Shown here piece after piece: positions 24,364 through 27,293 of a stretch of DNA of 44,050 nt. A program made the position numbers and the translations under genes. Every line of letters begins with the position of its first letter. The stretch's first letter is position 1. The notes below the pieces were generated by a model. That model was not told where the DNA came from. It saw only the letters and a list, made by a program, of their open reading frames with translations, and did no database searches. Origin of the DNA: Escherichia phage BEU33; the sequence record OM632667.1; one strand, written 5' to 3'.

Positions 24364-25784
24364 TTCTTACCTCGTCTCTTCATGTAATTAAGCAACTCTT
24401 CCTGTACCGATTTCTTCTCGTCAGTACGTGTGGCAACAACCTCGTCCAGCGTGTCTTTAGCGACGATGTGATAGAGGAACACCGGTCGCTCGTGCCCCGC
24501 TTGTTTCTGGCGGACCGGGCCTATACGCTCAACAACCTGCAAATAGTGCTCAAGGTTCCAGCCTTGCGAGATGAACGCCAGATGATGACCCCCGTCCTGT
24601 AAATTCAAACCATGCCCGGCTGACGCAGGATGCACGCATAAAATCTCGATTTCCCCACGGTTCCACGCTTCCATCTGCTTATTACCCTTCGCACCTTTGG
24701 CAAATGCCTGGGCCTGCGGGAATCGCTTAAGGATGCGCTCCAGTTCGTGCTTGAACTGATAGGCCACCAGTAACGGCGCGCCCTGTAACTCTTCCACAAT
24801 GGACTCCAGTGCGTCCAGTTTCGTGTCGTGCACTTTCTCCCAGTCTTTGGTTGCTTCGCCGTCAGGGCCCGAAACATACACGGCACCGGAGGCAATCTGC
24901 AGACACTTCGACGTCTTCGCCGCAGCGTTAGCCGCTTCAACTTCTCCGCTTTCCAGTTCCGCGAATAGCTTCTCCTCCATATCGATGTACGCCTGACGTG
25001 CTTTCTTCGGCAGGTCGATTTCAACCGGCACGATAACAGGCGCTTCACAACCGAACCACTCGGCGGCGTCAATCGTCAGACTGATGTCCTTCATCTTCTG
25101 GTGAATCTCGTTATCTGCACCAGGGCGGGCGTGATATTCACGTGCCATCGCAGATTTTCCTTTCTGTACCGAATTAAACCAGCGGTCGGTGAATGCTGTA
25201 TACGACGAACCTAGGCGCTCGCCAGCGTCGATAAACCAGTTCTGGCCCCACAAATCCTTGAGGCCGTTTGGTGACGGTGTACCAGTCAGGTTAATAAAAC
25301 GCTTAACCCTTCCGAAAGCCACTTTACTAAGCGCCTTTGCACGCTTGCTACCACCTGAACGGCTGCGGAATGATTTAAGCTTCGTGCTTTCATCGGCAAC
25401 GATAACAGTAAAAGGCCAGTCATCTTTGCCATAGTAGTCAATCAGCCACTCAATAACTTCGTAGTTCGTGCAAACCACGTTAGCATCTGACTCCAGCGCC
25501 GCGATGCGGCGCTTCTCTGAACCAGTCGCATCTACAACACGCAGACATGGGAATTGCCATTTCTCTTGCTCTGCAGGCCACGTACCAGACGCAACCCGCA
25601 GCGGGGCGAGGATTAACACGCGGTCGTCATCATTAAGTTGGCCGTTTCGGAACAGTCGGTTTAATGCCCACAGTACGCTGCCAGTCTTCCCAGCGCCCAT
25701 GCTTGCCCATATGTTGCAGCGATGGTGCCGCAGCATGAACGAAGTCATGAGCTTTTGGTACTCACGCCTTTGAAACTTACTCAT
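24360..25784 (-). CDS. SF2 helicase, SNF2-like
   Basis: Walker A GAGKTG, motif II DEST, LTGTPSPN, C-terminal GHGLNLQDGG block. Confidence 0.75.
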   Translation of the reverse strand: MSKFQRREYQKLMTSFMLRHHRCNIWASMGAGKTGSVLWALNRLFRNGQLNDDDRVLILAPLRVASGTWPAEQEKWQFPCLRVVDATGSEKRRIAALESDANVVCTNYEVIEWLIDYYGKDDWPFTVIVADESTKLKSFRSRSGGSKRAKALSKVAFGRVKRFINLTGTPSPNGLKDLWGQNWFIDAGERLGSSYTAFTDRWFNSVQKGKSAMAREYHARPGADNEIHQKMKDISLTIDAAEWFGCEAPVIVPVEIDLPKKARQAYIDMEEKLFAELESGEVEAANAAAKTSKCLQIASGAVYVSGPDGEATKDWEKVHDTKLDALESIVEELQGAPLLVAYQFKHELERILKRFPQAQAFAKGAKGNKQMEAWNRGEIEILCVHPASAGHGLNLQDGGHHLAFISQGWNLEHYLQVVERIGPVRQKQAGHERPVFLYHIVAKDTLDEVVATRTDEKKSVQEELLNYMKRRGKK

Positions 25785-26706
25785 TTACCGCCCCCATGAA
25801 TGCCTTTATAAATTCAGCAGCTACTTGCGGGACGATGGCATTGCCGTAACCGCGCAATCGTCCCACTCTGGCGGGTATCCCATCAGCCAGCGGGAATGTG
25901 CCGGGTTCAACTGGCCTGAATTTTCCATCCCGGCATCCGAGCCAGTCTGCCTCTGACCAGAAGCCGTGATGCGGATTGGTCGCGATATTTTCAGTCCCTG
26001 CTCCGTTGAGTAGTCCAGCCTGTCGAAAGTCCGGTCCTTTCCGTCCTTGCGAATCACTGTCTCTCCGCTCCCTCTGTAATCGTTCGCGGTCGGCGTCGCC
26101 CATGCCGTCATCGCGGCGGCCCACCCCAGTTTGTTCGGTTTCGTCCTGCCGTCTGTGCTGCGCATGTTCACGTCGTTTGTTATCAGTGATACTGCTGGCG
26201 TGGGCCAATCTATGCGCGCCGAAGAAAAGTCGGTCGCGTTTGTGCGGTGCGCCGACGCTACAAGCTGGGAGTACGGCAAACCCGACGGCGTAGTTTTCTC
26301 CTTCCAGGTGAGTTTGTAAATCGCACATCCACGATTTTGCAATTGCTGGCGCAACCTGCTCCCCAAAGAGGACTGGAGGGCGGCACTCGCTGATGAGGTC
26401 GAGGAACACAGGTGCGAGGTGTCTCGGGTCGAACTGTCCGAGTTGCTTTCCCGCTGCGCTAAACGGTTGGCAAGGCGGGCTTCCCGTCCAGAGAGGCGCA
26501 TCTTCCGGAACTCCCGCAAGTCTGAGCGCGAGAGGCCAGCCGCCGATACCAGCGAAAAAATGACACTGGGTGAATCCGTCGAGGTCTTCTGGCTTAACTT
26601 CAGTAATGCTTCTTTCATCTACAACTCCAAAAGGTATGTGACCCTGTTTTATTAATTCACGCAGCCACGCGGCTGCGCCTTTATCCCATTCGTTGTAATA
26701 GTTCAT
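25777..26706 (-). CDS. DNA (cytosine-5)-methyltransferase
   Basis: Motif I FAGIGGW, motif IV SPPCQPFS, C-terminal GYGNAIVP; unusual charged low-complexity insertion in the middle. Confidence 0.8.
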   Translation of the reverse strand: MNYYNEWDKGAAAWLRELIKQGHIPFGVVDERSITEVKPEDLDGFTQCHFFAGIGGWPLALRLAGVPEDAPLWTGSPPCQPFSAAGKQLGQFDPRHLAPVFLDLISECRPPVLFGEQVAPAIAKSWMCDLQTHLEGENYAVGFAVLPACSVGAPHKRDRLFFGAHRLAHASSITDNKRREHAQHRRQDETEQTGVGRRDDGMGDADRERLQRERRDSDSQGRKGPDFRQAGLLNGAGTENIATNPHHGFWSEADWLGCRDGKFRPVEPGTFPLADGIPARVGRLRGYGNAIVPQVAAEFIKAFMGAVNE

Positions 26707-26894
26707 TTTGCCACCAGAACTAACTCTTTACGCCCGAACGCCGTAACGTTACCGGTTACATCTTCGATAACCAGTTTACCGTTCGACTCGACGTACACCG
26801 TATCAACGGCAACAGGCCGACGGGTCTTAACGTTGAAAATCATGTCGCCAGGTACGATGTCACGTGCTGGTTTGCGGTCATATTCGTGTTTCAT
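26703..26894 (-). CDS. hypothetical protein
   Basis: 63-aa ORF with RBS AAGGAA, start overlaps methyltransferase start region. Confidence 0.4.
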   Translation of the reverse strand: MKHEYDRKPARDIVPGDMIFNVKTRRPVAVDTVYVESNGKLVIEDVTGNVTAFGRKELVLVAK

Positions 26895-26924
26895 TTCTCA
26901 ATTCCTTATATTGTTGGTGTAGGA

Positions 26925-27212
26925 CTAACTATAATAGTTCGCTATTAGGGCGTCAACCTGTTTAAACGAACCAACGACAAAAACATTAGCACCACGCTTA
27001 CGCATCCGCTCGTGCTCCCGTAACTGGTGTGGATCCGGCTTCGTGCTTTCGTCTTTCTTTATCTCGACGAACCAGATGACGCCGCCGGGGAGAATTACCA
27101 GCAGGTCAGGGGCGCCGGAACGTCCTTCGTAGGAAAGTTTACGAACGAGGCCACCAATGGCCTCGAATCGGTCTTTTGCGTATTTCTGTATTTTGCCCTC
27201 AGGCGTACTCAT
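26925..27212 (-). CDS. VRR-NUC domain nuclease
   Basis: GAPDLLVILPGGVIWFVEIKKD pattern of the PD-(D/E)xK VRR-NUC fold; ATG 27212 with RBS GAGGGG preferred over GTG 27248. Confidence 0.7.
   Translation of the reverse strand: MSTPEGKIQKYAKDRFEAIGGLVRKLSYEGRSGAPDLLVILPGGVIWFVEIKKDESTKPDPHQLREHERMRKRGANVFVVGSFKQVDALIANYYS
26928..26956 (-). promoter_or_regulatory. sigma70-like promoter TTGACG-N17-TATAGT on minus strand
   Basis: Hexamers read on minus strand; overlaps the 3' end of the VRR-NUC gene and precedes the gene at 26894. Confidence 0.55.
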
Positions 27213-27293
27213 CCACACACCCCTCACGTTTCGTATGCGCAATACCACAGCGCGGACAGATCCGGCGGTCTTCTTCGTAGAACCAGTAAATTT

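Follow-up and report, generated by a model that had tools for sequence, protein, structure and literature searches.

A phage C5 cytosine methyltransferase gene that probably encodes a second, WPTP-repeat protein in its +1 frame

The window analysed here is the whole stretch of 44,050 nucleotides (nt) from Escherichia phage BEU33 (sequence record OM632667.1), and all positions below are positions in the window. Its minus strand carries a gene for a C5 cytosine methyltransferase chain, here called gene A, which an earlier note, made from the letters of the DNA, had described as an orphan methyltransferase with an unusual charged insertion. Our analysis suggests that the locus is a dual-coding gene pair rather than a methylase with an odd insert, and we put the probability of this reading at about 0.8. 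The second open reading frame (ORF), gene B, lies wholly inside A in the +1 frame, and we consider it very probable that B is genuine, is translated on its own and is under selection. The overlap of ~800 nt takes up 86% of the host gene A. The two genes are as follows.

25777-26706, minus strand: gene A, C5 cytosine methyltransferase chain of 309 amino acids (ORF; Pfam PF00145; PHROG 363)
25821-26618, minus strand: gene B, basic protein of 265 amino acids, isoelectric point 10.0 (ORF wholly inside A, +1 frame; PHROG 1008)

Selection on the two frames was analysed in 26 alignable relatives, by nucleotide diversity at each codon position and by an OLGenie-style count. In this count, dSN refers to changes that are synonymous in A and nonsynonymous in B, dNS to changes that are nonsynonymous in A and synonymous in B, and dNN to changes that are nonsynonymous in both. 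The values for successive regions of the gene are given below.

A codons 1-29, before the start of B: dSN 1.14, dNS 0.15, dNN 0.18
A codons 30-100, B leader: dSN 1.04, dNS 0.14, dNN 0.14
A codons 101-165, dual block I: dSN 0.36, dNS 0.23, dNN 0.14
A codons 166-245, charged segment: dSN 0.49, dNS 0.97, dNN 0.41
A codons 246-293, dual block II: dSN 0.26, dNS 0.18, dNN 0.09 (the tightest constraint in the gene)

The dSN values are neutral-like (1.04-1.14) where B is absent or consists of its leader, and changes that are silent in A and alter B are suppressed three- to fourfold in the dual blocks. Within the charged segment, A-only changes are approximately neutral (d=0.97), and changes that alter B are about halved (0.41-0.49); the methylase frame is thus without amino-acid constraint in the supposed insertion, while the embedded frame is constrained there. 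Codon-position diversity follows the same division. Over A codons 1-100, diversity at the third position of A is 0.40-0.46, well above the first and second positions. The third position of A is the second position of B, and diversity there drops to 0.15-0.22 over codons ~111-150 and 251-290; for dual block I, the drop is from about 0.45 to 0.17-0.22. In codons 191-220, the second position of A is the most variable and the second position of B the least, which is the signature of the B frame. Constraint therefore acts on A only in codons 1-100, on both frames in codons 101-165 and 246-293, and on B only in codons 166-245. The three regions in which B is constrained lie at the following positions.

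26212-26406, minus strand: dual block I, A residues 101-165 (methylase motifs VI and VIII) over B residues 72-136; low dSN, dNS and dNN
25972-26211, minus strand: charged segment, A residues 166-245, the A-frame reading of the B repeats; dNS 0.97
25828-25971, minus strand: dual block II, A residues 246-293 over B residues 217-264; low dSN, dNS and dNN

In dual block I, B reads SAALQSSLGSRL...YKLTWKEKTTPSG...LVASAHRT. In dual block II, A reads FWSEADWLGCRDGKFRPVEPGTFPLADGIPARVGRLRGYGNAIV and B reads ITASGQ..TGSDAGMENSGQLNPAHSRWLMGYPPEWDDCAVTAM, and both of these peptide strings are conserved in phages PMG1, BcepC6B and epsilon15 and in 80 bacterial loci.

These data give a simple account of the charged segment. 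A highly charged, R/D/E-rich stretch of A had been reported, and it is present at residues 166-245, which are rich in R, D, G, E and Q (R 17.5%, D 11%, E 7.5%). Its interpretation as an unusual insertion at the place of the target-recognition domain does not hold, as the segment reads the WPTP repeats of the embedded gene out of frame and its A-only changes are close to neutral. Among A homologues, residues 166-245 have no consensus and are rich in insertions and deletions (indels). The repeats of B are found in the same DNA, with WPTP at 26207-26196 and WATPTAND at 26102-26079. Across 113 distinct WPTP..D instances, all four bases occur at the third positions of the W-P-T-P codons of B, which changes residues of A; the WPTP of B reads in A as [LVM]-A-[DYNH]-[ATSP]. 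From these comparisons, the charged segment is best described as A's unconstrained out-of-frame reading of the WPTP-repeat region of B, apparently tolerated as a linker because A-only changes there are nearly neutral. Its charged make-up probably follows from the genetic code. Codons of B that start with AC, GC, GA or GG would appear one base early as xAC, xGC, xGA or xGG, giving Asp, Asn, His or Tyr, then Arg, Gly, Ser or Cys, and Arg or Gly.

The +1 frame of A is kept open throughout the family. Phages in IMG/VR and GenBank supplied 58 distinct homologues of A, with amino-acid identities of 43-100%. In 57 of the 58, no stop interrupts the +1 frame between about codon 29-35 and a point no more than ~20 codons ahead of the stop of A; the +2 frame contains 9-33 stops. 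In a few homologues, the +1 frame continues beyond the stop of A, and in two variants with a long insertion in A, B ends earlier. The observed length of the +1 ORF was reached by a fraction of only 0-0.01 of 2000 synonymous-codon shuffles (nine lineages). Bacterial genomes were searched through the most conserved peptide of B, which gave 519 confirmed loci, and 80 were retained. The N- and C-terminal parts of A lie alongside B in all 80, B occupies the A+1 frame in all except L137, where the A part is itself frameshifted, and both ORFs are intact in about 77. The bacterial hosts are Gamma-, Beta-, Alpha- and Deltaproteobacteria and Verrucomicrobia, together with metagenome-assembled genomes labelled Bacteroidetes, Planctomycetes and others. 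The pairing of A and B is also found in epsilon15, BcepC6B, PMG1, a Klebsiella Jedunavirus, Vequintavirinae, an Erythrobacter phage and a cyanophage. Three phages that match by the tail of B alone (Erythrobacter phage R6L, cyanophage Cy-LDV1 and phiXaf18) all carry A, at -1 relative to B. Among the ~138 loci examined, from several phyla, B was never found without A. Phages of E. coli, Pseudomonas, Burkholderia and cyanobacteria share the conserved motifs of B at 30-40% identity.

We note the state of the two frames in individual loci. In the Pseudomonas phage PMG1 (L004, 1127-2027), B is intact and is the annotated gene, and A is interrupted: its N-terminus lies in a different frame, and no A-frame ORF is longer than 164 amino acids. 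The bacterial loci L124, L137 and L144 have a broken A and an intact B, and the viral locus L049 has a stop in B and an intact A.

The open frame could in principle be a meaningless shadow of the composition of A, with the charged segment a genuine if unusual part of the enzyme, as the earlier note took it to be. Long out-of-frame ORFs do arise by chance in some genes, and synonymous shuffles of GC-rich relatives sometimes match the +1 length (the fraction of up to 0.01 above). A shadow ORF would be hard to reconcile with an open +1 and a closed +2 frame in 57 of 58 lineages, with the three- to fourfold suppression of B-altering silent changes in the dual blocks and the near-neutrality of A-only changes in the charged segment, or with start signals that are conserved and motifs that persist at 30-40% identity across distant phages. 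We consider this explanation scarcely credible.

The start signals of B are written into the codons of A and lie at the following positions, together with the leader.

26616-26628, minus strand: B start, GGAG (26628-26625), a 6-nt spacer ending in an in-frame TAG, and ATG (26618-26616), as read from the sequence
26409-26615, minus strand: B leader, B residues 2-70 (over A residues 31-99), stop-free, amino acids unconstrained

The GGAG-N6-ATG of B is made out of the codons of A for G-V-V-D-E, and the ATG at 26618-26616 is kept in all close relatives. In other clades, B starts 18 nt further downstream, at AGGAG-N8-ATG (gaa-AGG-AGt-att-gNa-gATG), where Glu-Arg-Ser of A is spelled with AGG and AGY codons that form a consensus Shine-Dalgarno (SD) sequence. 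A B-frame ATG is present at one or the other start site in 70 of 78 distinct sequences, and an SD-like sequence of the AGGAG type accompanies the second type of start in 38 of 45 sequences. Within A codons 37-100, none of the 58 sequences has a +1 stop (chance per lineage 0.08-0.83 by synonymous shuffling). Such a stop-free leader would fit initiation of B at the upstream ATG. In HdK5, a Vequintavirus, stops interrupt the B leader, and B must start later.

The identity of A as a C5 cytosine methyltransferase, proposed earlier from its motifs, is borne out by hidden Markov model (HMM) searches. A matches Pfam PF00145 with 62.6 bits (cut-off 22), although the aligned part covers only residues 68-186 (positions 60-182 of 324 in the profile). 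The match to PHROG 363 covers the full length (E=7.8e-89), and A is also recognised by the dcm model of NCBIfam and by methylase models of PADLOC. Motifs I, IV and X were correctly recognised before, and the set reads FFAGIGGW (residues 50-57), PPCQPFS (77-83), FGEQV (114-118), APHKRDRLFF (153-162) and GNAIVPQV (288-295). A aligns with HhaI residues 70-168, a part that includes motif IV PPCQPFS and motif VIII HKRDR (A residues 155-159). Motif X (GNxxxP) is contained in GNAIVPQVAAEFI at residues 288-300, which is at least 90% conserved and was recognised by eye, not by an HMM. An alignment of 54 homologues revealed no disruption of the catalytic motifs: motif IV (PCQ, with the nucleophilic Cys), motif VI and motif VIII (R-x-R) are all invariant. 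The earlier note was right that motif VI reads EQV in place of ENV. As E116, Q117 and V118 are invariant across the 54 homologues, EQV is a family trait and not a lesion of A, and FGEQV is also present in the epsilon15 and BcepC6B proteins.

Every methylase HMM (Pfam, PADLOC) ceases to match A at about residue 160-190. Along its length, A has the catalytic motifs first, then a linker free of constraint, and last a conserved stretch of 60 C-terminal residues that includes motif X; between motifs VIII and X, no conserved target-recognition domain or motif IX was found in its own frame. The sequence comparisons place A in a phage family of C5 cytosine methyltransferases and show it to be the catalytic chain. 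As had been claimed, no restriction endonuclease lies nearby; the neighbours are polymerase, helicase and primase genes, and the label 'orphan' is fair because no nuclease partner is evident. An anti-restriction role of A seems plausible.

The N-terminus of A has a further feature. Its YYNEWDK (residues 3-9; 26680-26700) is nearly identical to the HhaI motif II YSNEWDK, and this motif II-like peptide precedes motif I FFAGIGG (residues 50-56; 26539-26559, minus strand). HhaI sub-alignments around motifs I and II are individually non-significant, and the PADLOC DruM match begins at profile position 33. These features suggest that the motifs of this methylase family follow a permuted order, II-III-I-IV.

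The 265-amino-acid ORF at 25821-26618, on the same strand in the +1 frame, had been overlooked in the earlier reading of this DNA. B matches PHROG 1008 (E=1.8e-59) and belongs to a family with 6084 homologues and 10,028 cluster representatives at 50% identity (E<=1e-3). The protein begins with the leader. After it come a module with the conserved pattern LTWK...TPSG...AS.RRT, WPTPxAxD repeats in variable number, and a tail, likewise conserved, that reads ...QLNPAHSRWLMGxPPEWDxC. The family consensus of the module is S.SAALQSSL.SRL....GS.LY.LTWK...TP.GR....L.AS.RRT, and that of the tail is RLTASG..LTGS.AGME.GGQLNPAHSRWLMG.PPEWD.CA. The repeats number from one (Vequintavirinae) to seven or eight (for example P0155) at a spacing of ~30-40 residues, and four residues of B, W138, T140, W173 and T175, show at least 90% conservation or no variation at all. 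Much of B consists of short conserved motifs with variable spacers between them. Examples of peptides found in B and absent from the A frame are LTWKEKTTPSGLPYSQLVASAHR and WLMGYPPEWDDCAVTAMPSSR. The frame of B is continuous with a downstream Dam (PF05869) in P0139, and with a DUF2800/PD-(D/E)XK nuclease in P0137 and L087 (895-2388).

Members of this WPTP-repeat family are annotated elsewhere as 'Mte8-like', 'DNA methyltransferase' or hypothetical protein. In the K1G and K1ind phages, both A and B are annotated, and B is an 'Mte8-like protein' in GenBank and a 'DNA methyltransferase' in RefSeq; in the Golestan records examined, A alone is annotated in the A/B stretch. The literature searched yielded neither the origin of the name "Mte8" nor a published study of the embedded ORF, which is annotated here and there and uncharacterised.

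What B does is a separate question from whether it is made. A lacks a constrained target-recognition region and was always found together with B, which is itself basic; because of this, B is most likely a partner of the methylase, although our confidence that it is specifically the recognition or partner subunit stays a little below even. Both chains would be made during infection, and B would act on the methylase as a DNA target-recognition subunit or as a targeting or regulatory subunit, in an arrangement like that of Rz/Rz1. The most specific version, a two-chain enzyme in which B is a basic specificity subunit with variable WPTP modules encoded inside the catalytic gene, is tentative, and we hold it to be rather unlikely as it stands. 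In that version, gain and loss of WPTP repeats in B could retune or multiply the methylated targets with the catalytic chain untouched, and A would read the repeat DNA as a disposable linker.

Several observations weigh against the reading of the locus as a dual-coding pair with a methylase partner. Translation of B is predicted from sequence statistics, and its tie to methylation is a proposal. One frame is broken in a few loci (B in L049; A in PMG1, L124, L144 and L137). The profile of B has no match at E<=10 among PDB sequences, 56 B homologues gave only scattered noise against Pfam at E<=10, and B has no match in NCBIfam or PADLOC. The AlphaFold2 model of B (alignment of 60 sequences) has a mean predicted local distance difference test (pLDDT) score of 47 and is unusable, and that of A (54 sequences) has a mean pLDDT of 34, with the methylase core itself unfolded; because the models are unusable, neither the 'linker' in A nor a 'folded partner' in B has structural support. 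In hhalign, the sole alignment of the B profile with HhaI pairs QLNPAHSRWLMGYPPEWD of B with motif IX KLHPRECARVMGYPDSYK at E=0.19, and this resemblance of the B tail to motif IX, which would favour a role with the methylase, may serve as a lead only. When the middle of A is replaced by B (A-B-A chimeras), the scores against methylase HMMs from Pfam and PADLOC are no better than those obtained with a shuffled B segment.

Two other comparisons were set aside. The B profile aligned with E. coli Dcm in hhalign at E=0.23, which is meaningless. By eye, WATPTANDYRGSGETVI resembles TRTLSARYYKDGAEILI of Dcm, a hint of a role with the methylase that no statistic supports. For this phage, the A-B-A chimera gained on the methylase HMMs (66.6 to 71.3 bits, with the alignment reaching motif X), and this was rejected as shuffled-B controls did equally well in other lineages.

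The lack of detectable homology between B and any methylase domain would also suit a B that is real and separately translated yet unrelated to the methylase reaction, with a task in anti-defence, in the replication module or in regulation, for example. It would then have been overprinted where the middle of A tolerates change, and its linkage to A would reflect no more than their physical inseparability. The fusions of the B frame to Dam (P0139), DUF2800/PD-(D/E)XK (P0137, L087) and HNH (L029, below) point in the same direction, as does a protein made largely of short conserved motifs and variable spacers. Such a B would leave A with no constrained region for target recognition between motif VIII and the C-terminal part, so that recognition would need another source. 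The pairing in all ~138 loci from several phyla also speaks for a common function, yet an embedded gene would show this pairing whatever it did. An unrelated function strikes us as unlikely, though by no means negligible.

A different explanation makes one methyltransferase out of the two frames by two programmed frameshifts: A would be read through motif VIII, then +1 into B (the WPTP region and the motif IX-like WLMGYPPEW), and then back into A for motif X. Spliced in this way, the product would run I-IV-VI-VIII, variable region, 'LNPAHSRWLMGYP', 'GNAIVP', an order resembling that of canonical C5 enzymes, the middle of A is unconstrained, and the only alignment of B with HhaI falls on motif IX. 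A single frameshifted product cannot explain the data, however, because the two flanking blocks show constraint in A and in B alike, which would not be required of one spliced product. Moreover, ~70 stop-free codons of B lie upstream of any plausible shift site, B has its own SD sequence and ATG, and the first junction would fall within an indel-rich stretch. No shift site is conserved: a -1 slippery heptamer precedes GNA in 1 of 41 sequences, and a homopolymer of at least 6 nt follows motif VIII in 1 of 41. The chimeras, as stated above, do not outscore their shuffled controls.

Database proteins bear on the same explanation. An A-B-A chimera was used as a query against 5.8 billion proteins in search of single-frame relatives, and among the 120 matches listed only P0268 and P0121 join the two frames; the remainder listed are of the ordinary A type, six of them with extra length or insertions. 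P0268 and P0121 (294 amino acids, from Logan assemblies) are singleton A-to-B fusions, 96-97% identical to the sequences of this phage, that follow frame A through motif VIII and then frame B to the stop of B. They may have arisen naturally through an indel or through a mistake in the assembly. As A-to-B fusions they favour frameshifting, but they are single observations and do not have motif X. Taken together, we judge a frameshifted single product to be very improbable, and the dual-coding pair remains our preferred reading.

Variants with insertions show how the two genes behave when the overlap is interrupted. In L031 and L032 (proteins P0308 and P0382), A contains an insertion of ~170 residues just past ...CRDGKFRPVE. 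In L032 (IMG/VR contig 3300045988_074615), an HNH endonuclease ORF at 2432-2827 lies in the frame of B and begins directly after the stop of B, and the insertion is stop-free in the frame of A. Here B ends ahead of the insertion with a re-coded ...WLMGFPIHWD tail, A picks up after it with an unoverlapped A-type PLGVDIPARVARLRGYGNA / PLGVDIPARVARLRGYGNAIVPQ, and ...DCAVTAM, a remnant of the former tail of B, lies 3' of it. In L029 (1568-2929), an HNH ORF is fused to the C-terminus of B and extends past the stop of A. As the conserved C-terminal elements of A and B are both preserved in L032 although the overlap is broken, this variant argues that both products matter. The HNH ORFs of L032 and L029 look like the 'hidden HNH' homing elements of PMC11855218.

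Same-strand overlaps of hundreds of bases are generally held to be very rare in prokaryotes and their viruses. In lambda Rz/Rz1, a complete +1-frame gene with its own start lies inside another gene, and the two products act as one complex. B resembles Rz1 in being embedded on the same strand in the +1 frame, in having its own start and in being co-inherited with its host gene. The two cases differ in function (lysis versus DNA modification) and in extent, as Rz1 has ~60 codons and B spans 265 of the 309 codons of A, and a complex of A and B is hypothetical. The overlap of E. coli dcm and vsr is only 20 nt.

Division of a C5 enzyme into two chains has precedents. M.AquI consists of alpha and beta chains encoded by adjacent genes, and the second chain carries motifs IX and X. 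Complementing fragments of M.SssI are likewise reported to work as a two-chain C5 enzyme (PMC3404938). In both cases, the division falls in the variable region, which is what the partner hypothesis for B requires. In contrast to M.AquI, A and B are nested rather than adjacent, motif X stays on A, and the match of B to motif IX has E=0.19. A shares the catalytic half of M.HhaI and E. coli Dcm (PF00145), namely PCQ, E-x-V, R-x-R and GNxxxP, but unlike them it has no constrained target-recognition domain or recognisable motif IX, and its YYNEWDK stands before FFAGIGG. The multispecific methyltransferases of Bacillus phages SPR and phi3T carry tandem target-recognition domains in their own frame, with proven specificity. 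The variable number of short tandem modules in B, at the position between motifs VIII and IX, is similar to this arrangement; the repeats of B are in the other frame, however, and their role in specificity is hypothetical.

Methylase genes of actinophages carry out-of-frame HNH endonuclease insertions, termed the 'ShiLan domain' (Arsenault, Gosselin, Gogarten 2025, PMC11855218). In both the ShiLan domain and B, a stretch without stops looks meaningless when read as methylase, yet codes for a real protein when read in a different frame. Whereas the ShiLan domain is sporadic and mobile and encodes a homing nuclease, B is fixed, family-wide and without nuclease motifs, and PMC11855218 describes no family-wide embedded gene such as B. 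Embedded +1-frame genes (Rz/Rz1) and split C5 methyltransferases are thus already known in kind. What sets the present pair apart is the scale of the overlap (~800 nt), the breadth and depth of its conservation, and the surrender of the variable region of the host enzyme to the other frame.

The 1.8 kb around the A/B pair are 100% identical to Escherichia phage VB_EcoS-Golestan (Kagunavirus, Guernseyvirinae), and this region has hundreds of relatives in Escherichia, Salmonella and Klebsiella phages. The pair lies in a minus-strand replication module with the order DNA polymerase, two tiny ORFs, nuclease, 63-amino-acid ORF, methylase, SNF2-type helicase, primase. The features upstream of A are as follows.

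26703-26894, minus strand: ORF of 63 amino acids, PHROG 4879, function unknown
26925-27212, minus strand: nuclease gene, annotated as VRR-NUC or Holliday junction resolvase (PHROG 93, PHROG 5702)
26956-26928, minus strand: sigma-70-like site TTGACG-17-TATAGT, 10 of 12 consensus matches, putative promoter

The nuclease had been assigned to the VRR-NUC family. It matches PHROG 93 endonuclease (E=1.4e-32) and PHROG 5702 (E=1.5e-18), and the match to Pfam VRR_NUC (PF08774) stays below threshold (13.3 bits, cut-off 23.8, E=0.09). Given the strong PHROG endonuclease and resolvase matches, a VRR-NUC-type nuclease is a plausible assignment. The mechanically called ORF of this gene, 26925-27248 (minus strand, GTG start, 107 amino acids), is the annotated gene (ATG at 27212, 95 amino acids) plus 12 codons. 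The promoter-like site at 26928-26956, described earlier as a dedicated promoter just upstream of the small gene before A, exists as a sequence and recurs in 11 of 21 related loci examined. It is statistically unremarkable, with two sigma-70-like sites found in the 7-kb stretch against 5.5 expected from shuffles, and it encodes the final residues of the nuclease (VDA...YYS), with the stop codon directly after. Because the site sits in the last codons of the nuclease, its conservation may be a by-product of nuclease coding.

Genes in this module are closely chained. The TGA of the 63-amino-acid ORF overlaps the ATG of A as ATGA (26703-26706, minus strand), and the ATG of the helicase (25784-25782, minus strand) lies within the last codons of A, in aATGAGTAA (25777-25784). 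These stop/start overlaps suggest translational coupling along the module. Over the window, cumulative GC skew has a maximum near 24 kb and a minimum near 37 kb, and these two points bracket the run of minus-strand replication genes analysed here, at ~23.8-29.7 kb.

Overall, the locus is best understood as a methylase gene of ancient standing that codes in two frames, with a WPTP-repeat protein, so far unstudied, as its second product. Some 800 nt serve both frames, selection is measurable on each, and the arrangement is conserved from coliphages to a cyanophage and in prophages of several phyla. The B family is very large (10,028 representatives), and it has nothing in Pfam, NCBIfam or PDB. 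Gene callers and annotators give either A or B, and the label 'DNA methyltransferase' on B sometimes derives from its location alone; recognising the pair corrects this annotation and accounts for the recurrent 'low-complexity charged region' of such phage methylases. As the code permits B-null mutations that are silent in A, the pair also offers a clean system for studying two proteins that share one sequence. If B is the specificity subunit, the pair would represent a new architecture of DNA methyltransferase, relevant to the evasion of restriction by phages.

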